The notes beneath the pieces were generated by a model. The model worked only from the letters and a program-made list of their open reading frames with translations. It ran no database searches and was not told where the DNA came from. From positions 2,016,001 through 2,080,000 of the forward strand of contig CM000153.2 in the NCBI GenBank assembly GCA_000004695.1: a stretch of DNA of 64,000 nucleotides, given 5' to 3'. A program made the position numbers and the translations under genes. Shown here in pieces: positions 9,048 to 62,422 of this stretch (position 1 is its first letter; each line of letters starts with the position of its first letter). Source of the DNA: Dictyostelium discoideum. Its lineage: Eukaryota.

Positions 9048-9135
9048 TAATTTCAAATTAATAATTGATGAATATTATTAAGATAAAATAAAAACAATAT
9101 TTTTTGATAGCAAAGGGTTAATGATGTAAGATTTT

Positions 9136-9173
<38 letters not shown>

Positions 9174-9453: not shown

Positions 9454-9497
<44 letters not shown>

Positions 9498-10728: not shown

Positions 10729-10752
10729 AATAATAATAAAAATAAAAATAAA

Positions 10753-10783
<31 letters not shown>

Positions 10784-11106: not shown

Positions 11107-11149
<43 letters not shown>

Positions 11150-11372
11150 TTTTTTTTTTTTAATTTTTTTGAATTTTAAAAAAAAAAAAAAATAAAAAAA
11201 ATTGAAATTTTTTTCACCTTAAACAGTGTTTATATATTTAATTTTAGTTTTTTTTATTTTATTTTATTTTTTATTTTTTTTGTAAAAAAACTAAAAACAT
11301 AATTAAATTAGATTACTATATATATATATATGTATAATATATGAATAAAAAAATATTATTAAAAACATATTA

Positions 11373-11425
<53 letters not shown>

Positions 11426-11461
11426 TTATTATTTATATATATTTATAAATAAATAATAAAA

Positions 11462-16793: not shown

Positions 16794-17573
16794 CAGTTGA
16801 TTCAACTATAATATTAACAAGAGTTTGAATTGATAATTCAGATAGTTTAAAATCATAATCTAATGAATATTGATAAAGAATATCAATTAAATCATTATCA
16901 TTTGCTTGATTCAATTCCAATATCTTTGTATATTGGGATTGAGATAATATTGAAAGTAATAATAATGCATTATATTTTATCTCTCTATAAGATTTGGATG
17001 GTGTCTCCTTTATGATATTGAATATTTCAATTATTGGAAATTGTGAATGTGGTGATGTTATTGCTAATTTTTGTAAACATTTTAATGCTATAACTTTAAC
17101 TACAACTCTTGAATCTGAAAATCCATAATTCTTTAAAAATTTAATCTATAAATAATAAATGAATTAGTATTAATTTTTTTTTTTTTTTTTCTTTTTTTTT
17201 TTTTAAAAAAAAATACATACATGATCATCAATATAAAGGATATGTTTTAAAGATAAATTTGTTAAAGTATCTAAAATTACAGAAACGAAACCAACAGAAG
17301 GATATAAATCCAATAAACCAACTAACATCTCTTTAGATTGTGTTGCAATTGAATGACTATGATGCATATGTCTAAATAATCTGGTATACTTTAATTTGGT
17401 TATTGGTGGTGTTTCAACATTTTGAATAACTGTATGAATTTTTTCAATAATACTATCTGAAAATAATGGTGATATTTCACATAATTTATCCATTATAAAA
17501 ATTGTTGCTTCTAATTCAACTTGATCATGTGATTGCATACATGTTCTAATACTGTATTATTATTATTATTATA

Positions 17574-22110: not shown

Positions 22111-22195
22111 AGACACAATAATCACACCACACACACTCACACACGCACACATACTGACCTATATATATCATGTACACTCACACAAAATTACAGAA
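22111..22195 (+). promoter_or_regulatory. CA-rich block (CACACCACACACACTCACACACGCACACATAC; G/T-rich on the other strand) ~300 bp upstream of the PDK1-like ATG; candidate G-box / GBF-type developmental element
   Basis: A run of C/A dinucleotides stands out in AT-rich intergenic DNA. GBF is known to bind G/T-rich (CA-rich) elements in post-aggregative promoters (established knowledge; binding here not tested). Confidence 0.3.
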
Positions 22196-39452: not shown

Positions 39453-40850
39453 TTATATTTTATTTAATTTAATTTTAAAATAATTTGAAGGTAAACAAAC
39501 TTCATTGATTGGTTTATATTTTAAATTTTTAAATGGTGTTACACCAGATTTTAAAAGTTGATAATGTCTTAACATTGCACATTCAAATTCACGAATTATA
39601 AAACCAGGTTTATAAGGATAATTATTTACACCTTTCCATTGCTCAATTGCAGTTTCATTTGTTCTCCAATTGAGAAGGATTTTATTATACTCATCATCAT
39701 TTTGATCTAAATAAATTAAATGATTTGCTAATTCCTGTGTAGAGTTAAAATCACCAACGTATATATAAGAATTGTATGGTAAATATTTGATAGTACTTGG
39801 ATGACCCATAAATATTGGTACGGAACCAGCAGTCAATGCATCCAATACTTTCTCAGATACGTAATCTTTACAAATTGAATTCTCAAAAACAATTGTAAAT
39901 TTATATTTTGTTATTACTTCTTTCTTTTTTGCAAAAGGATCATTTGATAATCTTTTTAGTATTTCTTGTGTTGGCATATTATTTAAACAGTGGCCATACG
40001 AATCGATAACTATATATTTCATTAATTCTTGAACGTATTCTAAACGATTAGATCGTACATCTTGACAATTTGAGCAGAACCAATTCGCCAATGGGAGTGA
40101 TGGTATTTGGTGAGGTTGTAGTGCACTTAGATTAGTGGTTTTCATAATTTGGTAATCTTTTTTAAATTGATTTTTAATTTCTACCATATCGCGTGCTGGT
40201 ATGAAATTATATGTTTTAAATGCGCTGGTTTTATGTGTATCGAATCCCGTTCTAATATCAGATTGTGCTTCGTAGGATACTTTAAAATTGAAAATTTTAT
40301 AACAAGTTTGATTGAATGAACAATGTCTGAGATGTGGTGGCTCTAATGCAATTATCATTCTTGGTATGGACTGGTTGTACTCTCTATCGGGGTACTGAAA
40401 TTGTATGCCTGAATCATTGTATATCTCCATGTCCACTGTTTGGTTTGGGTACATTGGTTTCTTTATTAAATAGTACCATCTTTTGTCGTCAATTCCTCTA
40501 CATCTTCTTGCTATATTATCATCTGTTGGCCTGTCAAATGATCCTAAAAATTTCAAATACACTAAATCCGATGGTACACCATCTGGCACCTGCTCAAGTG
40601 GTAGGTCGTCCTCACCTGCAAGTATATTATTTTGATCTTGAAAATCATTATCTAGATTATAAATATTATGGTGATATTTTTGATGTTCTGGACTATAAAT
40701 ATCAACCTCATCCTCAGATCCATAAAAAAATACATTTGCATCATCATCATCAAATAAACTATATTTTAAAATATTAAATCCTATAATAATTAATATTATA
40801 TAAAAATAAATTATTAAAAGTTTTCTTGAGAATGGTTTTATCCTTTTCAT
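39453..40850 (-). CDS. GT10-family alpha-1,3-fucosyltransferase-like type II membrane protein (paralogue 1 of 3)
   Basis: N-terminal signal-anchor LLIIYFYIILIIIGFNIL. C-terminal GT10 motifs ..KYKFTIVFENSICKDYVSEKVLDALTAGSVPIFMGHPSTIKYLP..YVGDF..LANHLIYLDQNDDEYNKILLNWR (FucT motif YKFxLAFENS..DYVTEK...AG.VPVV.G). Single 465-aa ORF. Confidence 0.75.
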   Translation of the reverse strand: MKRIKPFSRKLLIIYFYIILIIIGFNILKYSLFDDDDANVFFYGSEDEVDIYSPEHQKYHHNIYNLDNDFQDQNNILAGEDDLPLEQVPDGVPSDLVYLKFLGSFDRPTDDNIARRCRGIDDKRWYYLIKKPMYPNQTVDMEIYNDSGIQFQYPDREYNQSIPRMIIALEPPHLRHCSFNQTCYKIFNFKVSYEAQSDIRTGFDTHKTSAFKTYNFIPARDMVEIKNQFKKDYQIMKTTNLSALQPHQIPSLPLANWFCSNCQDVRSNRLEYVQELMKYIVIDSYGHCLNNMPTQEILKRLSNDPFAKKKEVITKYKFTIVFENSICKDYVSEKVLDALTAGSVPIFMGHPSTIKYLPYNSYIYVGDFNSTQELANHLIYLDQNDDEYNKILLNWRTNETAIEQWKGVNNYPYKPGFIIREFECAMLRHYQLLKSGVTPFKNLKYKPINEVCLPSNYFKIKLNKI

Positions 40851-41781
40851 TTTTTATTATTATTATTATTTTTATTATTATTTATAGTACAACTATTATT
40901 ATTATTATTATTATTTTACTATTACTATTATTATTTATTTTTATTTATTGTCATATATTAATTATTTTTTGTTTTTTGTTTTTTTTTTTTGTAAGCATCT
41001 TGAAAAATAAAAAAATTAAATTAAAAATAAATTAAAATTTGGTTTATCATTTTAAAAAAAAAAAAAAAAGTGCAATGTGTTTTTATTTTTTTCTTTTTTT
41101 TTTCTTTTTTTTTTTCTATATTTTTTTTTTTTTTGTTTTTTTTTTTATTTTAAAAATGAAATGCTCAAATGCCATATTTTTTATTTTTTTGAGATTTGTT
41201 TTTCTTTTCCCTTTTTTTTTTTTTTTTTTTTTTTAAAAACAATGGTTTTTGGATTTTTTTGGTCTTCCTTTTTTTAGAATTTTCCTTTTTTTTTTTTTTT
41301 TTTTTTTAAAAACAATATATCCAACTCATATTTAATCTAATATTATTTTTATTATTATGATATTGATGAGAGGAAAAAAAAAAACTAAGCCAAACTCCAA
41401 AGTTTTCAAAGAAATAGGAAGGTCCAAAAAAAGAAAAAAAAATATATGATTTTATATAAGGTAGAAAATTTATCACTTACCAAATTTCTTTTTTTTTTTT
41501 TTTTTTTAATCCAATTTAATTGAACTGAATCTTGATTTATTTTAAAATAATAAGTAAAAAAAAAAAAAAAAAAACAATTGTAAAATTTGAATTTATTTTT
41601 TTTTTTGTATTTTTTTTTTGTTTTTATTATAATAATTATATGTATGTTTTTATTTAACTCGATTAATCAGTGAGATATTAATTAGTGAGATAAGTTGAAA
41701 AAAAAAAAAAAAAAAAATAAAAAAAAAAAACCATTACCCAAAAACTTTTTTTTATTTTTAAATTTAAAAATAATTTTTTTT

Positions 41782-41824
<43 letters not shown>

Positions 41825-41884
41825 ACGTAGCCATAATATCTTTTTTTTAGTTTTTAAATAAATAATATAACTATTGTAACATTA

Positions 41885-41919
<35 letters not shown>

Positions 41920-42105
41920 CAGTAAATAATAATTTTTACAAACTATTAATAAACTTCTAAAATAACTGTACTATAAATAAATATATAACCAAATAAAAAC
42001 CCCCACTACCACCATTTTTTTTTTTTCCAAACCCAAAAAAAAAAAAAAAAATAATAAAAAAAAAATACAAAAAAAAAACAAAAATAGAACATAAAATAAT
42101 AATAA

Positions 42106-42146
<41 letters not shown>

Positions 42147-42244
42147 TAATATAATAATAAATAATAAATAATAACGAAAATAGTTGAACCAAATAAAATA
42201 ATATATAATAAATAGATACTCATATAAAATATTAATTAATTAAT

Positions 42245-45200
42245 ATGAGTACTGGTTTAAAATGTTCGTCATGTGGTGCTTCAAATAGTAGTACATCAAA
42301 GTTTTGTACATCGTGTGGCAACAAAATGGCGGTGACAACAACGGCGGCATCGTCACCAACAGCACCATCAAAATCATTTTTAGCGCCAACGATTTCAAAA
42401 GTTACAGTTACCACAACTACAACAACTTCAAGTAGACCAGCATCAACAATAGTTAAACCATCACACTCAACTACAACAACAACAACAACAAGTAGACCAG
42501 CGTCAACAATTGTTAAACCAACAACAACCACAACAGCATCAACAGCATCAACTACACCAACAAAATCGATTTTAAAACCAACCACACATGTAACATCACC
42601 ATCAACAACAACAACAACAACAACAAATAATAATACAATCCCATCAAAATCAATTTTAAAACCAGTTTCTACAACTGTGTCTACACCTAAAACAACAGAA
42701 CCTTTAACAAGACCAAAATCTCACACAATTTCAGTTGGTACAGGTAGTAAGCCAACCACCACCACTACCACATCATCACCATCATCAACATCATTTGTAA
42801 AAATGGCAGCAAAGAGTAGAGAAAGTTTAGATAATCAAGCACAAAGAGATACAATGGTACTTCAAGGTTCTACATCAACACCTTTACCATCTTCAAAAAG
42901 TACTTTACAAATTAAGAAACCAACAACAACAACAACAACAACAACACCACCAACAAGTAGACCAGCATCAATGTCAGTATCAGTATCAACACCAAAACCA
43001 ATTCCATCCACCACCACTACAATCAATAAAACGACAGCAACAACAACAACAACACCGAATAAAACAAGTTCATCACCATCATCACCATCATTAATTGATA
43101 AACAAAAAGAGGCGGAAAGATTAGAAAAACAAATTCAAATTGAAAAAGAGAAATTCCATCAAAAAGAGAGAGAAATTGAACAAAATCGTCAACAGCAATA
43201 TGAAAAAGAGAAACAAGTTGAACGTGAAAAACTTGAACGTGAAAAAGAGAAACTAATTCAAATTGAACGTGAGAAATTCGAACGTGAAAAACAACAACAA
43301 CAAGACAAAGATGAACGTGAAAAACATAAACAACATGAAAAAGAAGAGCGTGAAAAACATAAACAACATGAAAGAGAAGAACGTGAACAAGAAAAACTAC
43401 ATCAAAAACAATTGGAAAAAGAACGTGAACAAGAAAAGCTACATCAAAAACAATTGGAAAAGGAAGAGAAAGAGAAACAACATCAAGAACGTGAAAAATT
43501 AAAACAATTTGAAAAAGATGAAAAAGAAAGAATTAGAAAATTAGAACGTGAAAAATATTTTTCAACACCACAACCACAAACAACCAGTAATTCAATAAAT
43601 CCAACACCATCATCACCATCAATTTCTTCACCATCATTAATTGCTAGTGGTGGTAGTATTAACAACGGCAACAACAACAACAGTCACAATGATAGTGGTG
43701 ACGAAGATTCAACAACTACAATCGCAACAACAACAACAACAACAACAACAACAACCAATAAAAAGAAAAGAGATAAAGAAAAACAAAAATCAAGAATATT
43801 TTCATTATTTTCCAGAATAAAAGATGATGAAGAAAATGATGAAGATGAATTAGTAATATCAAGTCCATCATCACCACCACCACCATCATCACCTACAGTA
43901 TCACCAACACCTGATAATCCAAACCAATCATCATTTAATATTTATGAAAAGGATAGTGGTGATATTAGGGATAGTGGTGATTTTTCAAATAATGGTGGTA
44001 CTATTGGTGAAGGTCAATTAAGAAAATGGGCTATTAAAAGGAATGAATTACAAAAATCTGAAGGAAATTTATTTGCACCATCATCACCATCACAAACCTC
44101 ACTTTCTGGTGCAGGTTTCCCAATTGGTTCACATAGTCCAAATAGTAGTAGTGGTTCATTGAATTTAGCATTAAATGGTAATGGTAATGGTTGTAGTAAT
44201 AATAATTTGGGAGCTACTACATCACCATTACCAATATCATCATTTATACCATCATCATCACCAATGGTTGGTAATAATAATAATTCACCATCAGGATTTC
44301 AAATGGGAACATCACGTATATCATCACCAAATCCACCACCAGATTTACCAAATAATTTACCACAAGCCATTGAACAACGTGATCGTGTAATTGAAGAGAT
44401 TATAGTGACAGAAGCCGATTATATTAGAGATTTAGAGATTATGGTTTGGTTAAAGAAAGAGATGACAATTCATGACAATGATACAACCAAAGGTAGTACA
44501 TTGGAAGAAATTAATTCATTATTTAGTAATGTTGAACAGTTATTATTGGTAAATAAAGAATTGTATAAAAAGTTTTGTAATTTTGATAATTCATTCAATA
44601 CAAAGGTTGAAGATGGTGGTGATGGTAGTGAAAAACCATTGTCATTTATAGACCATATTGCAAGTGGATTCGTTAGTATGGCAGATTTCTTAAAGTCTTA
44701 TTTCGTTTATTGTAGTAATCAACAAAAGGCGTTATCAACATTCTCTGCATTAAAGGGTAAAAATTGTACATATTTAGCATACCTATTGACAAGAAGAGAA
44801 TGTAGGTCATTACCATTCGATAGTTTCTTAATTAAACCAGTTCAAAGAGTTTGTAAATACCCATTATTAATTAGAGAGCTAATTAAAACCACACCACAAG
44901 ATTCCAAATCCTATGAGAATTTAATTAATGCTCAAAGTAAAATTGAGAGTATTGTATTCGCTGTCAATGAAAAGAAGAGAGAATTTGACTCACAAATGAA
45001 AATGCTTGACATTCAAAATGGAATCATTGAGTCTGGTGACACCACCACAAAGATTCTATCACCAAGTAGAAAGTTAATAAAAGAGGGTTCCATACAAAGT
45101 TGGGGTTCAACCATACCAACTGGTACACGTGATTTCATTTTCAAAAAGAAGAATAAAGAAGGTTACTATTACCTCTTTAATGATCTTTTTTTATATGCTG

Positions 45201-45757
45201 AAATTAAAAATGATAATTCAATTAAAGTCAAATCTGAAATACCTTTTGAACATTCTGTAATTTGTGATACATTACTCGATAATTGTGCATTTGATATTAA
45301 AAACAAAAATCTATGGTGTATGTTCTCTTTAGAAACCCTTGAAGAAAAACAATTAATTTTTAAAGAAATTGAATCTCAAATGTTATCTTATCAAGGTCTA
45401 TTACAAGAATATCAAAAATATGTTGATGATAGAAATTGTACTTCTGGTAGTAGTAGTAGTAGTAGTAATAATAGAAATTCAACCATTTCAAATAATGGCT
45501 CCACTGCTTTAACCAATGGTACTAGTAGTAGTAATTTATCATTATCTTCAAATTCTATAACTTTAAATGGAGCTTCATCTTCATCATCTTCCTCTGAATT
45601 ATTATCAATTGAAGAATGGAAATTATTAGTTAAAAATAAACCGTTACCTGCATTACCCACAACTTCAAATAATAATAATAGTAATAATAACTCGCCATCA
45701 ATATCCAGAATTAATAAAGCATTACCAACTCCTCCTCCACCACCATCAAAAAATTAA
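42245..45757 (+). CDS. Rho guanine-nucleotide exchange factor (DH-PH) with N-terminal RanBP2-type zinc finger (C-x2-C-x3-N-x6-C-x2-C), Thr/Ser-rich low-complexity region and an E/R/K-rich charged single alpha-helix segment
   Basis: KCSSCGASNSSTSKFCTSCGNK at residues 6-27. EREKLEREKEKLIQIEREKFEREKQQ..EEREKHKQHE.. ER/K tract. DH domain AIEQRDRVIEEIIVTEADYIRDLEIMVWLKKEM..LFSNVEQLLLVNKELYKKF..QQKALSTFSAL, followed by a PH-like region. Single 1170-aa ORF. Confidence 0.75.
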   Translation: MSTGLKCSSCGASNSSTSKFCTSCGNKMAVTTTAASSPTAPSKSFLAPTISKVTVTTTTTTSSRPASTIVKPSHSTTTTTTTSRPASTIVKPTTTTTASTASTTPTKSILKPTTHVTSPSTTTTTTTNNNTIPSKSILKPVSTTVSTPKTTEPLTRPKSHTISVGTGSKPTTTTTTSSPSSTSFVKMAAKSRESLDNQAQRDTMVLQGSTSTPLPSSKSTLQIKKPTTTTTTTTPPTSRPASMSVSVSTPKPIPSTTTTINKTTATTTTTPNKTSSSPSSPSLIDKQKEAERLEKQIQIEKEKFHQKEREIEQNRQQQYEKEKQVEREKLEREKEKLIQIEREKFEREKQQQQDKDEREKHKQHEKEEREKHKQHEREEREQEKLHQKQLEKEREQEKLHQKQLEKEEKEKQHQEREKLKQFEKDEKERIRKLEREKYFSTPQPQTTSNSINPTPSSPSISSPSLIASGGSINNGNNNNSHNDSGDEDSTTTIATTTTTTTTTTNKKKRDKEKQKSRIFSLFSRIKDDEENDEDELVISSPSSPPPPSSPTVSPTPDNPNQSSFNIYEKDSGDIRDSGDFSNNGGTIGEGQLRKWAIKRNELQKSEGNLFAPSSPSQTSLSGAGFPIGSHSPNSSSGSLNLALNGNGNGCSNNNLGATTSPLPISSFIPSSSPMVGNNNNSPSGFQMGTSRISSPNPPPDLPNNLPQAIEQRDRVIEEIIVTEADYIRDLEIMVWLKKEMTIHDNDTTKGSTLEEINSLFSNVEQLLLVNKELYKKFCNFDNSFNTKVEDGGDGSEKPLSFIDHIASGFVSMADFLKSYFVYCSNQQKALSTFSALKGKNCTYLAYLLTRRECRSLPFDSFLIKPVQRVCKYPLLIRELIKTTPQDSKSYENLINAQSKIESIVFAVNEKKREFDSQMKMLDIQNGIIESGDTTTKILSPSRKLIKEGSIQSWGSTIPTGTRDFIFKKKNKEGYYYLFNDLFLYAEIKNDNSIKVKSEIPFEHSVICDTLLDNCAFDIKNKNLWCMFSLETLEEKQLIFKEIESQMLSYQGLLQEYQKYVDDRNCTSGSSSSSSNNRNSTISNNGSTALTNGTSSSNLSLSSNSITLNGASSSSSSSELLSIEEWKLLVKNKPLPALPTTSNNNNSNNNSPSISRINKALPTPPPPPSKN

Positions 45758-45933
45758 AAAATTTTAAAAATAATAATAATAATAAAAAAAGACTTTTAAA
45801 AATTTATATAATTATAATTAAATTAGAATAGAAATTAAAGTATATTTAAAGTATACTTGATGTTTTATTTAAAATTTTACTTTATTATTTTTTTTTTTTT
45901 TTTAATTTTTTTTTTTTTTTTTTTTAGAAAAAT

Positions 45934-47304
45934 TTAATTATATTTATCACCATTTTTAATATATTCAATATCTTTAGCAACCATTTCTTTAACGAGTTCA
46001 CCAAAAGAAGTTTTAATTTGCCATTGTAATAATTTCTTTGCTTTATTTGGATTACCAAGTAAAAGATCAACTTCAGTTGGTCTGTAATATTTCTCATCAA
46101 TTTTAACGTAAACTTTACCAGTCTTTTCACAGTAACCTTCTTCTTTTTCTGCTTCACCTCTCCATTTGATGATGATATCAATTTCTTTGAATGATTTTTC
46201 AACAAATTCACGAACTGAATGAGTTTCACCAGTGGCAATAACGAAATCTTCTGGCTTCTCTTGTTGTAACATTAACCACATTGCTTCAACGTAATCTCTA
46301 GCGTGACCCCAATCACGTTTAGCGTTGATATTACCCAAGTAGAGAATTTCATCTCTACCACATGCAATACCAGCAACGAAACGAGTGATCTTTCTAGTTA
46401 CAAAAGTTGGACCTCTACGTGGTGATTCATGATTGAATAAGATACCATTACATGCATACATATCGTAAGCCTCACGATAGTTTACAACGATCCAATAGGC
46501 ATATTGCTTTGCGACAGCGTATGGTGAACGTGGATAGAATGGTGTGGTCTCTGATTGTGGAATCTCTTGAACTTTACCATATAATTCAGAGGTTGAAGCT
46601 TGATAATATTTAACCTTTTTCTCCATACCACAACTACGAATTGCATCCAATAAACGAAGACAACCTAAACCATCAACATCACCTGTATATTCTGACATAT
46701 CAAATGAAACTTTAACATGACTTTGTGCACCTAAATTATAAATTTCAGTTGGATTAACTTTTGAAACAATACTATGTAAATTCTATTTAAAAAAAAAATA
46801 TATATAGTATTTTTTTTTTTTTTTTTTTTTTTTAAATCTAAAGATTTACGTACACTAGCATCTGTTAAATCACCATAATGTAAAGTAAGTGATTCTTTTT
46901 TTAAAAAAATGAAATAAATAAATAAAAATTAATAAATTTGAATAATTTTTGATTAAAGTAAAGTATTTTAAAATCAATATATGTGTGTGTGTGTGTGTAT
47001 TAAGTTACTTTTTCCTTCAACATGTCGATCTTGATATAAATGTTTTTTACAATGGTATTAAAATGATGAAAGATCTTCTGAATAATACCATGAACATAAT
47101 AGCCCTTACTAATAAGGAACTCTGTTAAATATGAACCATCTTGACCCTAATTTTTTTTTTTTTTTTTTTTGGTCGATTAGTATTTTTAAATTTTTTTTTT
47201 TTTTTTGATTAAAAAAAAAAATGAAAAATAATAATAATAATAAATAAATTAAAAATATTTACAGTAATACCAGTAATTAATGCTACTTTACGTTCTTCAC
47301 TCAT
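45934..47304 (-). CDS. gmd: GDP-mannose 4,6-dehydratase (first enzyme of GDP-fucose synthesis); exons 47263..47304, 47009..47146, 46854..46894, 45934..46782. Phase at the exon 2/3 junction could not be reconciled with canonical sites (1-nt discrepancy)
   Basis: [14 protein letters not shown]|[22 protein letters not shown]...|[14 protein letters not shown]|[136 protein letters not shown] matches GMD end to end (Rossmann TGxxGxxG, YxxxK, NHESPRRG). Confidence 0.88.
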
Positions 47305-48095
47305 TGTTATTTATATATATATATATGTATTTATAATTATTGTTTGTTGAAGGGTGAAATTCAAAACAAAATTAATTTAAAAAAAAAAATAAAAATAAAA
47401 AATGAAAAATAAAAAAAAAAAGAAAAAAAAAAAATAAAAAAATTATTTTTTCAAATTGTTGTTCTAAAAAAAAAAAAAAAAAAAAAATGATGAAAGGTGG
47501 CAAATGGTTGAAATTTTTTTTTGACCCTAAAAAAATGAAGTTTTTTCCACTCTCCTAAATTTTTTTTTTAAAAAATATAAAAAACAAAAGCTTTTTTAAA
47601 AAATAAAAAAAAGACATCAGCAACGACAGCACTCGCCAAAACAAAACTTATTTCTCTAACAAATAAATAAATTTTGCTTTTTTTTGGTGAAAAAGGTAAT
47701 AAAAAGAAAAAAAAAAAAAAAAAAAAATAAAAATAAAAAATAATAAAAGATTTAAGCAATTTACCCAAAAAAAAAAAAAAAAAAAACTGCCCATATCCAA
47801 AAAAACTAAAAATAAATAAAAAAAAAAAATAATAAAATAAAAAAAAAATAAAAATTTTGAAACACTACTCAAATTTTTTTTTTTATTTTATTTTAATTTT
47901 TTTTTGTCAAATTTTTTTTTTTTTTTTTTAAATCCCTTGCCATAGCCCAACACCCAACAAAAGAAATAATAAAATAATAAAATAATAAAATAAATATAAT
48001 AATTGTAGAAGTAATAGTAGTTGTGGTAGTAGTAATAATAATAATAATAATAATTGTAATAATAAAAACTAATAATAATAATAAAAATAATAAAA

Positions 48096-49487
48096 ATGAA
48101 AAATTTTGCTTCACCATTAAAAAAAGTTTTTATACTATGTTTTATATTAACAATAATAATAATAGGATATAATATTATAAATGAAAGTATAGAATTTACA
48201 GATGTTTTTTATTTTCAACAAAGTAAAAGTTTTGAACAAACTAGGGATCCAAACCAAGTTGAAACAATATATACAAAATATAATGTAGATGGTGATGATA
48301 CGACAAAGAATTACCTTTACGAGGGTGAACATGTAATTGAAAATTATAAAAGTTTAAATATATCCTCAGAGTATTTGGTACTGTTCAATTATATTGGATA
48401 TTTTGAATATAGAATTCCAAATGATGCAGCATTCAAATGTCAAGGACTCGACGACAACTTTTATTATGTCGTCCCTTTGGATAACTCGACAGCAAACATC
48501 GGACACCAACTACCACCACCATCACACCCACCAGTTGATATGGAGATCTATTTCGATATTAAAAACTCATTCCAAATGATAGACGACAGTTCACCAAATC
48601 ATGTGCCAAGAATGTTGATCACATTGGAGCCTCCACCATTTAGAGGATGCGAATTTGAGAAATCATGTGTAGAATCATTTAATTTCAAACTTTCATTCGA
48701 ATCAAAATCAGATGTTAGATTAGGTTTCGATTCAAAAATAAGTCCATTTGAAGAGTTTAGAAAATTACCTTTGTCATTGATTTTGGAAACTCAAAATCAA
48801 TTCAAGAATGATTATGAACAAAGGAAATTAAATAATTCATTACTAGCTCACCAAACATCATTCCCAATGATAGATTGGTTTTGTTCAAATTGTGAAACAC
48901 AATCGAATCGTATTGAATATGTAAAGGAATTAATGAAATATATGGTTGTGGATTCGTATGGAAATTGTCTTAAAAATATGCCAACACCTGATTACCTAGC
49001 CAGAAGATCGGTTGACCCTTTCACTAGAAAGAGACTATTTATTACAAAATATAAATTCACAATTGTTTTTGAAAATTCATTATGTAAAGATTACGTATCT
49101 GAGAAGGTATTGGATGCATTATCGGCTGGTTCCGTACCAATCTTTATGGCTCATCCAAGTACTATCAAATATTTACCATATCAATCTTATATATACGTTG
49201 GTGATTTTGACTCTGCAGAGGAATTAGCAAATCATTTGAAATATTTAGGTGAAAATGATATCGAGTATAATAAATTTCATGCATGGAGATCAAATGAGAC
49301 TGCAATCGATCAATGGAAAGGTGTAAATAATTATCCAAATAAACCTGGTTTTAAATTACTTGAACTTCAATGTCCAATTCTAAGACATTTCCTACGTTTA
49401 AAAACTGGTAAAATACATTTAAAAAATTTAAAATATAAACCATTTGATGAAGTTTGTTTACCATCGACTTATTTTAAAGTAAAATAA
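48096..49487 (+). CDS. GT10-family alpha-1,3-fucosyltransferase-like type II membrane protein (paralogue 2 of 3); divergent from gmd across a ~790-bp shared upstream region
   Basis: 463-aa ORF; signal-anchor VFILCFILTIIIIGYNII. ..KYKFTIVFENSLCKDYVSEKVLDALSAGSVPIFMAHPSTIKYLP..YVGDFDSAEELANHLKYLGENDIEYNKFHAWR. Same architecture and ~55-60% identity to the 39453 and 50316 genes. Confidence 0.75.
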   Translation: MKNFASPLKKVFILCFILTIIIIGYNIINESIEFTDVFYFQQSKSFEQTRDPNQVETIYTKYNVDGDDTTKNYLYEGEHVIENYKSLNISSEYLVLFNYIGYFEYRIPNDAAFKCQGLDDNFYYVVPLDNSTANIGHQLPPPSHPPVDMEIYFDIKNSFQMIDDSSPNHVPRMLITLEPPPFRGCEFEKSCVESFNFKLSFESKSDVRLGFDSKISPFEEFRKLPLSLILETQNQFKNDYEQRKLNNSLLAHQTSFPMIDWFCSNCETQSNRIEYVKELMKYMVVDSYGNCLKNMPTPDYLARRSVDPFTRKRLFITKYKFTIVFENSLCKDYVSEKVLDALSAGSVPIFMAHPSTIKYLPYQSYIYVGDFDSAEELANHLKYLGENDIEYNKFHAWRSNETAIDQWKGVNNYPNKPGFKLLELQCPILRHFLRLKTGKIHLKNLKYKPFDEVCLPSTYFKVK

Positions 49488-49720
49488 ATAAATAAAAAAA
49501 ATAAATAAAAAATAAATAAAAAATTATATTTATAAATTCTCAAAAAAAAATGAAAAAAAAAAAAAAAAAAATGAAACAAATCGTGCGATTTGTTTCCTAA
49601 ACCACTGTAACAGTAAAACAAAAATTTTTTTTTTTTTTTTTCTTATTAATATTATTATTATTATTAGTATTATTATTTTTTTTTACTTTTTTTTTTTTTT
49701 TTCTTATTAATAATATTATT

Positions 49721-49756
<36 letters not shown>

Positions 49757-50102
49757 TCAAATAGTCTCTTTTCCATTTTTTTTAATTTTTCTTTTTTTTC
49801 AAGCTATGGCCACATAAGACATGTCGATTTTTTTGGGTTACATTGAAAAATAATTTTTTTTTTAAAAAGTTTTTTTAAAAAGTTTTTTTAAAAAGTTTTT
49901 TTTTTTTTTTTTTTATTTTCTTTTTATTTTCATAAAGACATTTATTAGGTTGGGTTATCAAAATTATAATTTATTTATTAAAAATAAAAAAAAAAAAAAA
50001 ATAAAAAAAAACAATTTAAATTGTTTGAAAACACACAAAAAAATAAAAAATCAAAAAAAATTAATTTGTTTTTAGGGTGTGTGCTAAAAATAAATAATAA
50101 CA

Positions 50103-50136
<34 letters not shown>

Positions 50137-50315
50137 CAATGTGTTTTTATTTTAATATTTTATTATTATTATAATTATTATTTATTTATTTTCACCAACC
50201 AATTTATTTATTTATTTATTTTTTATTTATCTATACAATTTTTTAAATCTTTTTTTTTTTATTATTTTTTTTTGAAAAAAATAATAATAATAATAATAAT
50301 AAAAAATAAAATAAA

Positions 50316-51704
50316 ATGAATTTAAATAAAACATTATTTAAAAGAGTTTATGCATTATGTTTTTCACTCTTAATGATAATAGTTTCATATAATAATTTTT
50401 ATAATAATTTCCTTGGTAATCCAGGTGTTTATTTCTATCATAAAGATATTGAAAGAGCAACTTATGGGAACTATTATAATAATGACGCAAAATATCATAA
50501 CAATTCCAATAAATTTAATGTGGATAATGATGATCCATACAAACATACAAATATTGAAGGTGAAGGAGTTATAACTCGAGATGCTATTAAAGAATTAAAC
50601 ATTTCAAATGATCAATATTTTTATTTTAAATATATTGGAAGAGTTGATACGAGAAAATTAGATCGTGATACAATTATTAGATGTAAAGGATTAGATGATA
50701 AATTTTACTACATAGTAAGGAAACCATATTACCCAAACCAAAAACTTGATATGGAGATATGGAGTGATTATATCGTTGATTTTGAAGCACCAAAAAAGAA
50801 GCTATCATCTAGAAATGTGCCAAGAACATTGATATCGATGGAACCTCAACCCAATAGAACTTGTGAATTTGATAAGGACTGTTTTGAATTTTTCAATTTT
50901 AAAGTTTCATTCGAATCTCAATCTGATATAAGAATGGGATTTGATACACCATCATCAAGTGCATACAAATTGTATAATAAATTAACAATTGATGAAATTG
51001 CTAAAATTCAAACTCAATTCAAATTGGAATATCAAGTAATGAAACACAACAATACTTTACAACCTCACCAGAAATCGATACCATTGGCCAATTGGTTTTG
51101 TACAAATTGTAATTCTCATTCGAATCGTAATGAATATGTTCAGGAATTAATGAAATTCATTGTGGTGGATTCTTTTGGTAAATGTTTGAAAAACATGCCA
51201 ACTTCTAATTTCCTAAGTAGAGGTTCTGGTGACCCATTCGAAAGAAAGAGACTATTTATAACTAGATATAAATTTACAATTGTTTTTGAAAATTCAATTT
51301 GTAAAGATTATGTATCTGAAAAGGTATTGGATGCATTAATTGCTGGATCCGTACCAATATTTATGGGTCATCCAAGTACTATCAAATATTTACCACTCAA
51401 TTCTTATATATTTGTTGGTGATTTTAAAAATGCTGAACATTTAGCAAATCATTTGAAATTTTTAAGTGAAAATGATAATGAATATTTTAAACTTCATACA
51501 TGGAGAACAAATCAAACTGTAATCGATCAATGGAAAGGTGTAAATAATTATCCAAATAAACCTGGTTTTAGATTCCGTGAAGTTCAATGTCCAATTCTAA
51601 GACATTATCAACGTTTAAAAACTGGTAAAATACCATTAAAAAAATTAAAATATAAACCAATGAATCAAGTTTGTTTACCTTCAAACTATTATAAAATTAA
51701 ATAA
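50316..51704 (+). CDS. GT10-family alpha-1,3-fucosyltransferase-like type II membrane protein (paralogue 3 of 3)
   Basis: 462-aa ORF; signal-anchor VYALCFSLLMIIVSYNNF. ..RYKFTIVFENSICKDYVSEKVLDALIAGSVPIFMGHPSTIKYLP..FVGDFKNAEHLANHLKFLSENDNEYFKLHTWR. Confidence 0.75.
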   Translation: MNLNKTLFKRVYALCFSLLMIIVSYNNFYNNFLGNPGVYFYHKDIERATYGNYYNNDAKYHNNSNKFNVDNDDPYKHTNIEGEGVITRDAIKELNISNDQYFYFKYIGRVDTRKLDRDTIIRCKGLDDKFYYIVRKPYYPNQKLDMEIWSDYIVDFEAPKKKLSSRNVPRTLISMEPQPNRTCEFDKDCFEFFNFKVSFESQSDIRMGFDTPSSSAYKLYNKLTIDEIAKIQTQFKLEYQVMKHNNTLQPHQKSIPLANWFCTNCNSHSNRNEYVQELMKFIVVDSFGKCLKNMPTSNFLSRGSGDPFERKRLFITRYKFTIVFENSICKDYVSEKVLDALIAGSVPIFMGHPSTIKYLPLNSYIFVGDFKNAEHLANHLKFLSENDNEYFKLHTWRTNQTVIDQWKGVNNYPNKPGFRFREVQCPILRHYQRLKTGKIPLKKLKYKPMNQVCLPSNYYKIK

Positions 51705-55515: not shown

Positions 55516-55612
55516 TAACCTTTTTTTTTATTATTTTATTATTTGTATCTTTTATAATTAATAAAAAAAAAAAAAAAAAAAAAAAATGAAAAAATAAAAA
55601 CAAAAACAAAAC

Positions 55613-55646
<34 letters not shown>

Positions 55647-55985
55647 TTTTAAACAAAATAACTAATTTCTTTGAAATTATTTTCTTATTTCTTAAATCGT
55701 GCCATTGACACAACCTTTAAAAAATAAAAACAAAACTTTTTTTTTTGAAATAATTTAACTTTATATAATAATGAAAACGCTTCGCTAAACTAAATTAACT
55801 ATTGTCTATTTTTTTTTTTTTTTTTTTATTATTATTTTTTTTTTTTTTTTAATATAAGATTTTAAAGATATTATTAAAATCATCTAAAATTATTTTATTT
55901 CCAAAAAAAAAAAGTTTTCACACACCTTGAGGTTTTTTTAAAAAAAAAAATCAAAATTATTATTATATTATATTATTTAAATTGT

Positions 55986-56320
<335 letters not shown>

Positions 56321-56790
56321 CTGGATTATTTAAATAAAAATTATTGTTATTATTATTATTATTCATACATTCTACTCAAATCCGATATTGATAGATAAAA
56401 AAACCAGTACATACTATTTATTTATTGTGTGCTTTTTATATTTAGAGAATGAGAAAAAAAAAAAAAAAAATTTTAATCGAAAAAATAAAAATAAAAAAAA
56501 AATAAAAAATAAAAAAAATTGAAAATAAAAAATAAAAATAAAAAAAAAAAATGTTTTGTTTTTTTGATTTGTTAAAAAGAAAATTTTCTTTATTTTAAAA
56601 TAACTAGTTGTAATAGTATTTAAATTTTTACAATTGTTTTTTTTTTTTTTCCAAATAAGATTTAAAATATTAAAATATTAAAAGATTAAAAGATTAAAAG
56701 ATTAAAAGATTGATTGATAGTTTTTTTTGAATTAAAATAAATATAAATATATATGTGTATTAAATATAGTCGCCCAATTTGAGATCAAAT

Positions 56791-56975
<185 letters not shown>

Positions 56976-58059
56976 CCATTAAAAACACTAGAGAGAGACT
57001 AATTTAAGACACCCTGTGATGAGAAAAATATGATAGCCGCGAGAAAGAATTAAAATTTGAATTTATAAGTTGGTATTACAGAATTAAAAAAATAAAGGTT
57101 GATTTTTCACTTTTTTTTTAGTCCCTTAACACTAATTTCTAAAAATAGAAAAAAAAAAAAAATGTTAGAAATTTATAAATAAAAATAAAGCTATATTAAT
57201 AATTAAAAAAACTTACACCTTCTCTTTTAATGGAATTTCTATTACTATTTTTAAAAGAAGTTCTTTTTTTATTTCCCAATGGCTTTGAGGTTGGGAGAGT
57301 AATTAATAAAAATGGTAAAACATCCCACATTATGTTGATTTTATTATTATTATTATTATTATTTATAAAAATTAAAAATGTAGTTTTTAAAAAATACTAT
57401 TATTATTATTTTGAAGTGATTAAAATAATTTTTTTTTTTTTTATGATTTAATAAAAAATATTTAAATAATTTAAATAAATAAATAAAAATTTATGAAAAA
57501 AAAAAAATAAAGAAATTTAATTATAATTATTATTATTATTAATATTAATTATTATTATAATAAAAAATTGATTGTAGTAATATGAAAGTAGTAAACCGAT
57601 GAATGAAAATTAATTGAATATCGTTTTTTTATTATTTAATTGAAATAATAGTTTATTTTAATTTAATAAAAATATTAAAATTTATATATATAGTTAATTT
57701 TAATTATTTTAAAAAAATGGTTATTGTTATTTAGAAAAATATAAAATAATTTTATTTTGTTTTGATTAATTTTTTTTTTATTTAAGAAATTATTGAAAAT
57801 ATAATTTTTTAAATATTATATATTAAAATAATAATTAATATTTGGTATATATTTGATGATGTTGATGATGACGATTATTAATAATTAAATTCAAAAAATT
57901 ATCAATTAAATAATAATTATTAATTTAATAATTTTTTTTTTTTTTCTTTTTTTTTTTTTTTATAATGATTTAAAATATTATTATTATTATTATTATATTT
58001 TTGTTTTCTTATTAAATTTTTTAATAATTATTATTAGTATAAAAAATATCTAATATAAT

Positions 58060-58222
58060 TGTATTTATATGGTGGGGTCTGTGGTGAGTTTGTGTGTATT
58101 TTGAATTAAAAAACAAAAAAAGTTTTTGATTGAACCAAATAAAGATAATTTATAAATTAAAAAACTAAGAGGCACAAAAAAAAAACAATGATTATAAATA
58201 ATATTAATAAATAATTTTAAAA

Positions 58223-58274
<52 letters not shown>

Positions 58275-58950
58275 ATATATATATTTGTTAATGTTTTGTT
58301 TTATGATAAATGATTTATTTTTTTTTTTTTTTTTTCTTTTGATTGATTTAAATAGAAAAAAAAAATTAATATTAATAAGGGATTGTGTGTATGGTTAGTA
58401 TTAATTAAAAAAAAAAAATATATGAAAAAAAAATTAATGCGTGATATTGGTAATGAAAATCAATATGGTGTGAAGGAGAGAGAGAGAGTATGTGTTTGTG
58501 TTTGTGTGTGTGGTTAGAGTGAGAGAGTTTGGGTGTTATTTGTGGAGTTAATGGGTTATTTATAGCCTATGATATTTTTGTCAACTCACACAACAACCCA
58601 AAAAAATAAAAAATTAAAAAATAAACCACATGACTAAAAATTCATTTAAGATTGTGTGTGATTACAAATTTTTGATTTTAGTTGGTTAAAAAAAAAAAAT
58701 TAAAAAAAAAAAAAAAAAAAAAAAACAATTATAATTACAAAGTCAAAATGTATATTTTAAAATAATATATTAAAATATAAATATTTAAGATTAGAAAGTG
58801 GGTTTGGTGTCTTTTTAGGTTTGGGGTGCTATGTATATTAATTTTTTTTTTTTAAAAAAAAAAAATTTATCGTGCTCTATGTATGTTTTTTAACTTAATA
58901 ACTGTATTTTAGTGTCTTTGTGTCTGCCCAAACTGGATTTTGTGTTAAAT
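58060..58950. promoter_or_regulatory. Cluster of G/T-rich islands (GGTGGGGTCTGTGGTGAGTTTGTGTGT; GTGTTTGTGTTTGTGTGTGTGG with (GA)7; GGGTTTGGTGTC..GGTTTGGGGTG; GTGTCTTTGTGTCTGCCC) inside a 3.4-kb gene-free AT-rich tract
   Basis: GT-rich islands stand out against >85% AT surroundings. Resembles G-box elements (established GBF targets) or could be exons of an unrecognised transcript. No ORF support. Confidence 0.25.
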
Positions 58951-59050
58951 TTTTTTTATTTTTTTTTTTAAAAAAAAAAATAATCAAAAAAAAAAATTAA
59001 AAAAAAAAACAAATAAATTACACATCTAAAATACTATTAAAGAATTAATA

Positions 59051-59081
<31 letters not shown>

Positions 59082-59161
59082 GTTTTATCATTTTTAACCG
59101 TTAAATCAAACTATTATTTTTTTATTGATTTGTATATACAGGTTTTATTATTATAATGATT

Positions 59162-59199
<38 letters not shown>

Positions 59200-59228
59200 T
59201 TGAATGGAATTAAAAAGAATTTACTTTA

Positions 59229-59260
<32 letters not shown>

Positions 59261-59517
59261 TGATTAACAAAAAATTGTATAATCTGGTCTTTTTCAGATA
59301 TTTTAGAACCAAAAACAGAGATATTGGGTGATTGATATGTGGTGGGAGAGTACTTGTTTATTAATAAAAAACAAGCATAACCCCAACTACCCACACTACT
59401 ACTACTACAAATAACCACTTTGTTTATTTTACTGTATACTATTAGTTTCACAGGATATTTCTTAATTATATATGATTATTAATCTGCATCTGATTTATTT
59501 CTTTTTTTACTATACTA

Positions 59518-59548
<31 letters not shown>

Positions 59549-59740
59549 CTGCATCTTTTTTTAAATCAAGATTCTACTACTTGTTTTTTTTTTTTTTTTA
59601 TTTTTTTTTTCTTTGTGATTATTGACGATTTCTAAAAATAGTTTTTTACAACGATTAAAAGTTATTATTGATTTTTCTTTGTGATTTGATTTTTATTAAT
59701 TAATAAACCGAAATGAATGATTAATTAATTAATTATTTAC

Positions 59741-59945
59741 CTATCAAAATTATAATCAATCTTGATTTTTTTTTTTATGTGAATTTAATTTAAATTTTGT
59801 TTTTCAAACATTTTTTGCTTTTCTTTTAAAAATAAACCAATAATTAGCCAATCGACTAACGTTTAAAAATATTTTTATTTTTATTTTTATTTTTATAATA
59901 ATAAAAAAGGAGTTTTGTTTTTAAATTTTTTATTATTTATATTTC

Positions 59946-59978
<33 letters not shown>

Positions 59979-60476
59979 ATATAAAATAAAATAAATAAAA
60001 TAAAAATTACCTGACTTAAAAATGTAAAGAATTGTGTTTATTGTCCAAATTAAAAAAGTGATATTTTTTTTTTATTAAAATTATTTTCTTTTTATTTTTA
60101 AAATAAAGATACAATTAATTTAAAACAAAAAGAGGAAGAAATTGGGAAGGGTTCAAGATTTTCATAAAAATTTTAAAATAAAATAAATATTAAAATTTTT
60201 TTTTTATTTTTTTTTGAATCTGACAATTGGTAACAACTTTTTTTATATTTTTTTTTATTTTTTTTTATTTTTTTTTATATATTATTTGATTCACAGTTAA
60301 AGCTTCTTTTTTTTTTTATTTTTTTTTTTTTTTCTTTTTGTGTACTATCAAAGTTGATTGGGTTTTTTAACCAATCACAACGTGATGGTAGTGGCAATAT
60401 AAAACAAATTTTTTTTTTTTAGTTTAATAATTTAACACTTTATAAAAAAAAAAAAAAAAATCATCACATACTTTTA
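59741..60476. repeat. Copy A of a ~750-bp direct repeat (about 95% identical to 62800..63668). Carries CCAAT (AACCAATCAC), TATAAAAC and an oligo-T run near its 3' end; its first ~50 bp (59741..59790) are inverted relative to copy B
   Basis: Long co-linear identity read directly, e.g. CCAATAATTAGCCAATCGACTAACGTTTAAAAATATTTTTATTTTTATTTTTATTTTTATAATAATAAAAAAGGAG.., ..AAAGAGGAAGAAATTGGGAAGGGTTCAAGATTTTCAT.., ..GTGTACTATCAAAGTTGATTGGGTTTTTTAACCAATCACAACGTGATGGTAGTGGCAATATAAAACAA. Confidence 0.85.
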
Positions 60477-61505
60477 TGAGAAAAAAAAAAAGATACATAA
60501 AATTTAAAATGAGTAATAAAATAGCAAACCAGAAAAGTTTGATGAATATTGGCAATGTTTTCACTTAAAAATGGTACAAAAAAAGAATGGAAGAGGTGAA
60601 GGTAATGTTTATTTTGGTTTAAAATTGTATAGTTGCAATAAATGTGACATAAAGAGATGTGTATACCGCCATCTCCACCTGAACACACTTTCAATTCAAC
60701 AGTATTATTCATAAGATACTATATAGAGAAAAGATTAATCTCAAATCACATAATAATCAATAATAATAATAACTAATAATAATGACCAATAATAATAATA
60801 ATAATAATAACTAATAAACTACATTAAAGTTTAAACAAGTTAATTCAAACTATGTAATCAGTTTTATTTTATAGAATTATTATTCTTCATCTAAATTTAA
60901 TTTAATTCTGTCATTGATTTCAATTGATAAATAAAATTTTAACATATCACACCAAGTGTTTTTTTTATTTTTTTTTTTTTTATTTTAATAATGCCAATAT
61001 TATTTTATTCTTATACTTGGCAACCTTCTCAAAGAACGCCAATCCCAAGTTCATCAACTGGTTAAGAAAGGTATCTGATCTTTGCATACCAATCGGTGGA
61101 ACCATTATACGTTTTGCATTTAGTAATATACTTTGGTATGGAATGAAAAACTTTTATAAAAAGCATGGTTTTTAAAAAAAAAAAAAATCTTTTTTTTACA
61201 AAAAAAAAAAAAAAAATGAAAAAACGAAAAAATGGTTTTAGCTCGCATTTTTAAAATATCATGATTTTTTTTTTTCTTCCATTTATTCTTTATGTTTTTT
61301 TCCCTCGTGGATTTATCTTCGATCGAACCGTCACATCTCTTTTATTTATAATAAAAATAACAAAAATTATTTTACCATCATTTGTCATTTTAAAAATAAA
61401 TATAAATAAACATAAACATTAAACAAACAACAACAATAACAATAACAACAACAACATAATATAATCAATATAATTTTAATATATATATATAGATAATAAA
61501 TAAAT

Positions 61506-62422
61506 ATGAAGATAATAAATAGTTTTCTTATTACATTAATTTTTGTTCAATTAATTTTACAAATTAATGGTATAAATGAAAGTTTATTTAATCAAAACAG
61601 ACAAGTTAGAAAATCAAATTTAGAAGATGATATACCATTATACTTTTCAGTATTACCTTTTGCAAGAGGTAATTTTTAATCAACATTATATATTTATAGA
61701 ATACACAATTTTTTTTACATCAATATTAACATCATCATCATCATCATATTAAATATATATAATTATTTATTTTTTTACATATTATAGGTAATTATTCATG
61801 CTCATTTGGTGGTATTTATGGAATTGGATTCCTTGGTTTAATAAATCAATGTGTCAATGATCCATATAATCCAGATTATAATTATTACATTTTCTTACAA
61901 GAGCAAGGTTCAGATAATGAACAAATTGTGTATCAATTACATAATAAAACCGATACCGATTGTACTGGTGAACCACCATTTTCAAATTATCATTTCATAA
62001 ATAGAGAGGGAACATGTGATGCCGCCCCTAACTTTATCGGTTTAGAGGATCAAATTGTAGATTTATACAACGAAAATAATGGTCAAAGATATCTCTATGA
62101 TGAACCTGCCTTTATAACTGTTTCCGATATGCCATATTCTGCTCATAACTCTGTATTCTTTGCTCTTTATAATCAAAGTTTTTGTAGTTCTGAAGCTCAA
62201 TATCCACACTATGCAAAAGTTTTTTCAATTGGTTTACAAATGTTAACTCAAGAAGGTGTCACCTATTTCTATTCATGTGATCCACATACTTATCTTCCAC
62301 AAATTACACTCTGTAAAAGTAAGGATAATTGTGAAACTAAAGCTTTAGATAATAGTTGTTCACTTGTAGATGGTACAGAAGATGTTTATCAACAAATCTT
62401 CTGTTCCCCAAGTTTTCAATAA
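61506..62422 (+). CDS. Secreted Cys-rich protein of unknown function. Exon 1 61506..61668 (signal peptide MKIINSFLITLIFVQLILQING), intron 61669..61786 (GTAATT..TTATAG), exon 2 61787..62422. The reading frame changes by 1 nt between ~61844 and ~61940 (frameshift or unconventional splice)
   Basis: Exon 1 and the start of exon 2 (GNYSCSFGGIYGIGFLGLINQCVNDPYNPDYNYYIFLQEQGSDNE) are in one frame. The long conserved-looking C-terminal ORF (..VYQLHNKTDTDCTGEPPFSNYHFINREGTCDAAPNFIGLEDQIVDLYNENNGQRYLYDEPAFITVSDMPYS..CSPSFQ*) is in the +1 frame. Each frame hits a stop outside the ~100-nt overlap. Confidence 0.45.

Follow-up and report, generated by a model that had tools for sequence, protein, structure and literature searches.

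The colanic acid and O-antigen loci of E. coli combine gmd, fcl (wcaG) and fucosyltransferase genes. The human FUT3-FUT5-FUT6 locus is a tandem cluster of GT10 alpha-1,3/4-fucosyltransferase genes without any gene for nucleotide-sugar synthesis, and its paralogues diverge in specificity and expression. In brown algae, a conserved cluster that is kept across orders unites FK-GFPP, a gene of GDP-fucose salvage, with genes for a sulfotransferase and a hydrolase (PMC11468063). Here, we describe a neighbourhood on chromosome 4 of Dictyostelium discoideum AX4, where gmd, encoding GDP-mannose 4,6-dehydratase, and the three GT10 genes fut4, fut5 and fut6 lie inside 12.3 kb. It was analysed as part of a 64-kb stretch (contig CM000153.2, positions 2,016,001 to 2,080,000 of the forward strand), which is called the window in the following and from whose first letter all coordinates of D. 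discoideum features are counted. We regard the locus as a genuine and moderately interesting new case of functionally related genes that neighbour each other in a eukaryote. The genes themselves and the expansion of the GT10 family had been described before; for the association of fut4, fut5 and fut6 with gmd and for similar pairings in other dictyostelids, no account was found in the searchable full-text literature, queried with gene IDs and gene names.

There are similarities as well as differences between this locus and the three described systems. As in the bacterial polysaccharide clusters, a gene for GDP-fucose synthesis adjoins the transferases that use GDP-fucose. However, the dictyostelid loci consist of separate eukaryotic genes on both strands, with introns in gmd and without an operon; there is only one synthesis enzyme per locus (gmd in D. 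discoideum, GER in T. lacteum), and no co-expression with gmd has been seen. The brown-algal cluster is likewise a case of eukaryotic microsynteny that ties a GDP-fucose-producing gene to enzymes of fucose-containing glycans (PMC11468063), but it belongs to the salvage route, has a sulfotransferase and a hydrolase as partners and is broadly conserved, whereas the dictyostelid arrangement concerns de novo synthesis, has GT10 enzymes as partners, occurs patchily and varies in its pathway gene from lineage to lineage. With the human cluster it shares the tandem GT10 duplicates. In contrast to the human FUT proteins, the dictyostelid proteins possess a long stem or N-terminal region, an interdomain insertion of about 40 residues and the tripeptide SEK instead of TEK.

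The gene fut4 (DDB_G0284551, UniProt Q54PK3; 465 residues) is located at 39453-40850 on the minus strand, and fut6 (DDB_G0284503, UniProt Q54PK0; 463 residues) and fut5 (DDB_G0284505, UniProt Q54PJ9; 462 residues) follow at 48096-49487 and 50316-51704 on the plus strand. All three are intronless open reading frames (ORFs) with a PF00852 domain, and their translations agree residue for residue with the AX4 proteins of these three identifiers. The gene names are those of the supplements of two papers, fut4 being listed in Table S16 of PMC3188802. The minus-strand gene gmd (DDB_G0284553, UniProt Q1ZXF7; 45934-47304) has four exons (47304-47263, 47146-47009, 46894-46854 and 46782-45934, the last with the stop codon) that are joined at GT-AG sites. 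Its start codon at 47304 and that of fut6 at 48096 are oriented head-to-head and enclose a spacer of 791 bp (47305-48095). An earlier note on this DNA, made from the sequence without database searches, had proposed exactly these coordinates for gmd and the three GT10 genes as well as a divergent pair across about 790 bp, and all of this was confirmed: each of the fut ORFs matches PF00852 with E-values from 1e-35 to 4e-37 (1.5e-35 for fut4), and exon 4 of gmd matches PF16363 with an E-value of 3e-110. In addition, the gmd product of a second D. discoideum assembly reaches 607 bits on TIGR01472, for which the cut-off is 415 bits. One unrelated gene, encoding a RhoGEF, is interposed among gmd and the three GT10 genes. 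The three paralogues share 50-58% pairwise identity, and a tblastn search of the window revealed no further GT10 copies or fragments.

Membership of Fut4, Fut5 and Fut6 in family GT10 is well supported by sequence comparison. The PF00852 scores of 122.9 bits (fut4), 128.1 bits (fut6) and 124.4 bits (fut5) compare with a gathering threshold of 23.9 bits. Profile matches to structures in the PDB were obtained over the donor-binding domain, namely to human FUT9 (8d0o, E 1e-26), to glycoprotein 3-alpha-L-fucosyltransferase A (FucTA; 9s6a, E 1e-23), to the fucosyltransferase 7yro (E 1.5e-22) and to H. pylori FucT (2nzw, E 7e-17), and at the level of phmmer the similarity to characterised GT10 structures is limited to approximately 150 residues. 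It is this C-terminal donor-binding domain with its key residues that the dictyostelid proteins have in common with FUT9, FucTA and H. pylori FucT. According to a 2025 review (PMC12717137), Glu137 is the likely catalytic base of FUT9, and Asn195, Arg202, Asn246 and Lys256 touch the donor. In the HMMER alignment, where FUT9 numbering equals the chain index of 8d0o plus 37, these four donor-contacting residues correspond to N265, R272, N327 and K337 of Fut6. Within a family alignment of 10 sequences, the latter three are invariant and N265 is present in at least 90% of the sequences. The signature (Y/F)xFxxxFENSxxxDY(V/I)TEK is found as an invariant YKFTIVFENS(I/L)CKDYVSEK with a conservative change from Thr to Ser, and the alignments with FUT9, FucTA and H. 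pylori FucT include this motif.

The N-terminal part of the proteins is more divergent from the known profiles. For PF17039, the N-terminal GT10 domain, Fut4, Fut5 and Fut6 give no match even at E-values up to 10, and weak matches occur in relatives (2e-7 and 3e-5 for T. lacteum copies c and b, 0.011 for a D. purpureum protein). A comparison by hhalign with a canonical GT10 protein that carries both PF17039 and PF00852 (99.4% probability) aligned residue E178 of an invariant LEPP with the LESP of that protein, and FNFKxSFESxSD with its FNWTMTYRTDSD. We take this LESP to mark the position of FUT9 Glu137. The motif FNxxxS/T(F/Y)xxxSD of the N-domain and the preceding putative catalytic Glu also align with characterised GT10 enzymes. 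On formal alignment, both the donor residues and the putative catalytic Glu are kept, so the GT10 identity put forward in the earlier note stands. An AlphaFold2 model of Fut6, calculated from the 10-sequence alignment, reached only a mean predicted local distance difference test (pLDDT) score of 41.6 and a predicted template modelling (pTM) score of 0.31, which is too poor for any use of the fold.

Each of the three proteins has a single hydrophobic segment at residues ~4-34 that follows a short basic N-terminus (Kyte-Doolittle maximum over 19 residues of 1.7-2.45), and they are predicted to be type II membrane proteins. This topology points to a location in the Golgi. Fut4, Fut5 and Fut6 are most likely putative inverting alpha-1,3/4-fucosyltransferases that use GDP-fucose, a mechanism which we infer because of their family membership. 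Among the top non-dictyostelid profile matches of Fut4, Fut5 and Fut6 are GT10 proteins of the springtail Orchesella, which contain 2-3 GT10 domains each and rank ahead of other animal FUT proteins.

Observations in favour of a meaningful arrangement come from two other lineages. T. lacteum (LODT01000013.1) possesses a GER gene (316 residues, 6961-8034 of the examined stretch) inside a group of five GT10 genes that covers about 12 kb (276-12536). This gene encodes a short-chain dehydrogenase/reductase (SDR) which is a GDP-L-fucose synthase, as it matches human GFUS with an E-value of 1e-102 and bears the corresponding name at NCBI. In P. violaceum, 110 bp separate gmd (CYY_001533) from a GT10 gene in convergent orientation, and CYY_001539, the closest relative of fut4, fut5 and fut6 in this species, is found on the same 80-kb contig at a distance of six locus tags. 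The loci of D. discoideum, T. lacteum and P. violaceum have no genes in common besides gmd and GT10. Since the pairings of T. lacteum and P. violaceum recur in otherwise unrelated gene contexts, the linkage of gmd or GER with GT10 genes is probably non-random. The neighbourhood of a donor-synthesis gene and transferases, to which the earlier note had drawn attention, is real and probably not a product of chance, but it is not universal and follows no shared promoter logic.

Some further observations were made at gmd and GER genes of other dictyostelids. From Pfam labels, the T. lacteum SDR gene might also have been taken for gmd; however, tblastn with GMD gave no match there, and the gene is GER. 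Genes with GRAB and AD domains are interposed in the same array. P. violaceum has a second gmd (AJWJ01000041.1, 8540-11160 of the examined stretch), located 295 bp downstream of, and on the same strand as, a gene for a GMPPB-like GDP-mannose pyrophosphorylase. This copy, a gene-sized duplicate of 1.2 kb, and the GT10-linked one are 90% identical at the DNA level. In C. fasciculata (GL883006.1, 6749-11143 of the examined stretch), gmd is arranged head-to-head, across a spacer of 338 bp, with a gene model for a type I phosphomannose isomerase (PMI). H. album contains partial gmd-like fragments on GL290989.1 (14352-14828 and ~17250-17411 of the examined stretch), including a model of 114 residues with a GDP_Man_Dehyd match; they lie in a run of Kelch and B-box genes downstream of the intact gmd and are probably pseudogene debris of a local duplication.

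Close relatives of D. discoideum share its gene order. In D. firmibasis the succession SMC2, GT10, RhoGEF, gmd, GT10, GT10, SF3b145 is the same as in AX4, and locus tags indicate the adjacency in D. citrinum, D. dimigraforme and D. cf. discoideum. As these are close relatives, we regard the shared order as background synteny. A syntenic relationship between the gmd contexts of D. purpureum and T. lacteum was considered as well and discarded, because the flanking giant gene and the flanking gene of ~260 residues are not homologous between the two species; the ancestral position of gmd can thus not be inferred from them.

The array itself has been duplicated locally. In a neighbour-joining (NJ) tree, the fut copies of the D. 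discoideum complex cluster together, and four of the five T. lacteum GT10 copies form a clade of their own (89% bootstrap), which indicates separate local expansions. Orthologues of fut4 are present in D. citrinum and D. dimigraforme, and fut6 occurs only in D. discoideum and D. cf. discoideum. The GT10 gene that takes the position of fut4 in D. firmibasis (10001-11383 of the examined stretch) does not group with fut4 but with the fut5 lineage (93% bootstrap), which suggests birth-and-death evolution or gene conversion. The 2011 D. purpureum genome paper had described a GT10 family much smaller than that of D. discoideum and had proposed the D. discoideum-specific GT10 genes as candidates for the core alpha-3-fucosyltransferase. 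Together with this published expansion, the NJ tree supports the lineage-specific local duplication that the earlier note had suggested.

The paralogues also differ from their neighbours in the rate of change. Between AX4 and D. firmibasis, gmd exon 4 is 97% identical with a ratio of nonsynonymous to synonymous substitution rates (dN/dS) of 0.03, and identity amounts to 94.6% for SMC2 and 92% for the Rad51 paralogue. Fut5 and its D. firmibasis orthologue share 71% identity (dN/dS 0.22), and fut4 and fut6 reach at most 52% identity with any D. firmibasis copy (dN/dS 0.35-0.44). These dN/dS values of 0.22-0.44 do not point to pervasive positive selection on the fut genes but to overall purifying selection, combined with relaxed or fast evolution. 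Of the three paralogues, fut6 is the most polymorphic: among D. discoideum and D. cf. discoideum assemblies its product differs at 7-13% of the amino acids, with indels, compared to 1-2% for gmd.

Expression data are available for two of the three paralogues. In a published compilation, fut5 and fut6 are both classed as spore-specific and fall into one shared k-means cluster; gmd and fut4 do not appear in the published cell-type-specific gene lists. The values for fut6 are 11 in the hr00 sample and 20 in vegetative cells, 13-36 between 4 and 24 h, 10.5 in prespore and 6.9 in prestalk cells, and 203.6 transcripts per million (TPM) in spores and 5.3 TPM in stalk. Those for fut5 are 0.7 and 1.8 in the hr00 sample and vegetative cells, 28-47 between 4 and 24 h, 45 in prespore and 16 in prestalk cells, 50.8 TPM in spores and 3.5 in stalk. 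Hence, vegetative cells hardly express fut5, which is induced from 4 h of development, and fut6 has an approximately ten-fold peak in spores; the two adjacent genes behave similarly. The GMD and GER proteins have been assigned to the "continuous expression proteome", GMD being present at all stages of the life cycle with the highest level in vegetative cells.

The earlier note had also singled out two sequence elements, a GC-rich one between gmd and fut6 and an inverted repeat behind fut6. Both exist, although neither is quite as described. The first is a GC/CA-rich 25-mer, GACATCAGCAACGACAGCACTCGCC, in the gmd-fut6 spacer, which spans 47613-47637 rather than 47613-47640 and shows no sign of function. 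The second is the palindrome GAAACAAATCG-tg-CGATTTGTTTC at 49573-49596, which has arms of 11 bp and starts 86 bp beyond the stop codon of fut6; the inverted repeat with arms of 10 bp covers 49574-49595 and so lies 11 bp away from 49563-49584, where it had been placed, and it is neither notable nor conserved. The 25-mer and the palindrome are both absent from the orthologous spacers of D. firmibasis. There are six GC islands comparable to the 25-mer in the 22 kb of non-ORF DNA of the window. Perfect hairpins of at least 10 bp that contain G/C occur at three loci, compared with 1.25 +/- 1.26 in Markov simulations, and the inverted repeat is therefore within chance expectation. Scans of the whole window with Rfam (at gathering thresholds) and for tRNAs returned nothing, which means that the two elements are not known RNA genes. 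A functional role of the 25-mer and the palindrome is thus unsupported. The gmd-GT10 spacer of D. firmibasis has a length of about 1.8 kb, more than twice the 791 bp of AX4, and just ~85 bp beside the gmd start align between the two species above low-complexity noise. Neither in D. discoideum nor in D. firmibasis did the spacer contain G-box or CA-element motifs.

With these data, the possible explanations of the locus can be weighed. It is a real neighbourhood of gmd and locally duplicated GT10 genes, and on balance we lean towards the view that their linkage is not accidental. The earlier note went further and suggested co-regulated fucosylation, with gmd and the fut genes forming one unit under a bidirectional promoter that includes the GC-rich element. 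We consider this improbable. The head-to-head start codons at a distance of 791 bp provide the geometry typical of a bidirectional promoter (<1 kb), and fut5 and fut6 are both spore-enriched. A conserved element and a correlated output, which also characterise such promoters, were however not found: GMD is continuous with a vegetative maximum, where fut5 is nearly off, fut6 peaks in spores, and gmd is missing from the cell-type-specific lists, so that no switching together was seen. The GC-rich element is lacking in the much longer D. firmibasis spacer, and the window has several comparable islands. The continuous expression of gmd, set against the developmental regulation of fut5 and fut6, makes a tightly shared promoter unlikely. 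It has to be considered here that GMD protein levels are set against fut mRNA levels, which is an imperfect match; tight co-regulation of gmd and the fut genes is unsupported, and for co-expression the evidence leans to the negative. Another explanation would regard the cluster as what is left of a bacterial cassette of the O-antigen type that had been taken up by horizontal transfer, since bacterial polysaccharide loci commonly join gmd, fcl and fucosyltransferase genes. Against this stand the three spliceosomal introns of gmd, the native base composition of ~24% GC, and the nearest relatives of the proteins: the closest named relatives of gmd outside the dictyostelids are eukaryotic (chytrids and other fungi, 71-74% identity), and the top named GT10 matches outside Dictyostelia are springtail proteins, others coming from unnamed metagenome contigs. 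In view of the introns and the phylogenetic neighbours, we reject horizontal transfer from bacteria, and the cassette hypothesis is very improbable.

The main rival is chance, that is, a fortuitous adjacency of a GT10 gene and gmd followed by ordinary tandem duplication, with an order that was simply inherited and with the T. lacteum and P. violaceum cases as coincidences. We hold this to be rather unlikely, but several observations weigh against our own reading and most of them would fit chance well. Neither annotation nor tblastn showed a GT10 gene in the 10 kb around gmd in D. purpureum, H. album, A. subglobosum, C. fasciculata and at the gmd locus of T. lacteum, or in the 10 kb around GER in D. 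purpureum. The closest D. purpureum homologue is found on a separate 35-kb scaffold, and in the species of groups 1 and 2 the named GT10 genes are on other contigs than gmd. Conservation in dictyostelids, the lack of which the earlier note had listed in its refuting conditions, thus holds for the D. discoideum complex and its close relatives but not for D. purpureum and groups 1 and 2. The GT10 gene that abuts gmd in P. violaceum belongs to a different subfamily (22-28% identity). In AX4 itself, GER (DDB_G0270184), about whose location the earlier note had asked, is not linked to gmd, as its gene ID and its 4.92-Mb record, compared to the 5.45-Mb record of gmd, place it on a different chromosome record. 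No conserved regulatory element was found in the gmd-fut6 spacer by comparison with D. firmibasis, and the vegetative maximum of GMD contrasts with the near absence of fut5 mRNA at this stage. Head-to-head pairs are, moreover, common in compact genomes, and the finding was selected post hoc. A 2025 paper also states that among the N-glycan-related homologues which it discusses, including the GT10 genes, gpt is the only one with a specifically proven biochemical function. On the other hand, two further lineages pair a GDP-fucose synthesis gene with GT10 while nothing else is syntenic, and gmd copies also neighbour GMPPB and PMI. AX4 has about 10 GT10 genes (fut2-fut11; Table S16, PMC3188802), and PMC8327917 gives ~13,000 genes in total; by rough inference, a context of +/-10 kb would then include a GT10 gene with a chance of ~0.007. 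For two pairings in eight further contexts, with the discovery locus left out, a Poisson probability of ~0.0015 follows, a rough value that is post hoc and analytic and does not come from a genome-wide permutation.

If the favoured reading of a non-accidental neighbourhood is correct, the following picture could be drawn. The product of gmd is a cytosolic enzyme that performs the committed step of de novo GDP-fucose synthesis. Fut4, Fut5 and Fut6 would use the GDP-fucose from the pathway started by gmd, and Fut5 and Fut6 might act chiefly in the prespore and spore lineage. The array would have been built around gmd by birth-and-death tandem duplication within the D. discoideum species complex. 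The likeliest benefit of the linkage may be co-inheritance or a common permissive chromatin or regulatory neighbourhood.

It is conceivable, although we put this forward only tentatively, that dictyostelids repeatedly assembled or selectively retained such "fucosylation islands", in which a gene of the supply route stands beside GT10 arrays or beside further supply genes. Possible members would be the loci with gmd in the D. discoideum complex and in P. violaceum, with GER in T. lacteum, with gmd and GMPPB in P. violaceum, and with gmd and PMI in C. fasciculata, an assignment that is just as doubtful. If they exist, fucosylation islands would correspond, in a eukaryote, to the surface-glycan loci of bacteria, and diversifying transferases such as Fut6 could yield variable fucose epitopes on spores and the cell surface for interactions with amoebae, predators and microbes. 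A recurrent joining of supply genes and GT10 arrays would also be a rare, tractable case of selected gene clustering in a eukaryote that is neither a fungus nor a plant. More immediately, the fut4-fut6 array beside gmd, with its spore-enriched members fut5 and fut6, narrows down the candidate genes for fucosylated glycans.

A peculiarity of the reference sequence became apparent in gmd. When the exons are joined at the only available GT-AG sites, the result is 1067 nt long, out of frame and contains an early stop codon. The DNA alignment to D. firmibasis traces this to an anomalous patch in exon 2 (47042-47080, minus strand) with an additional C at 47080, an additional T within the run 47071-47069 and a segment of scrambled sequence, and the patch replaces a conserved loop of 12 residues in GMD. 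The public AX4 model of GMD (Q1ZXF7) has 356 residues with a garbled segment of 26 residues. All other assemblies encode a canonical GMD of 355 residues, including a second D. discoideum assembly with Fut proteins identical to those of AX4. Since the other assemblies are canonical and the GMD protein has been detected by proteomics, the patch is probably a local sequencing error in the reference and not a real lesion. Structural or mutational studies of GMD should therefore start from a corrected version of the AX4 reference and of UniProt entry Q1ZXF7.

The window has a base composition of ~22% GC, and its coding sequences contain poly-N, poly-Q and poly-T tracts. Pfam scans of its other long ORFs identified no further genes of the GDP-fucose or GDP-mannose pathways; they revealed two LysM/DPBB genes, myotubularin, INTS7, an SDR, an ADP-ribosylglycohydrolase, kinases, a Rad51 paralogue and a gene of the CfaA/B/C family. 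SMC2, RhoGEF and SF3b145 were named after the Pfam domains assigned to the orthologues in D. firmibasis. The two LysM/DPBB genes (6527-7363 and 8223-9044, plus strand) are tandem paralogues whose secreted-looking products combine a DPBB domain (lytic transglycosylase/expansin-like) with LysM domains. A CA-rich island, CACACCACACACACTCACACACGCACACA, stands out at 22122-22150 from a background of 14% GC, in the non-coding sequence that separates a kinase gene from the ADP-ribosylglycohydrolase gene. The region 55600-61700 has 14-17% GC and no ORF of at least 130 residues; the short GC-richer pieces in it, at ~56011, 57275 and 60664, resemble small exons.

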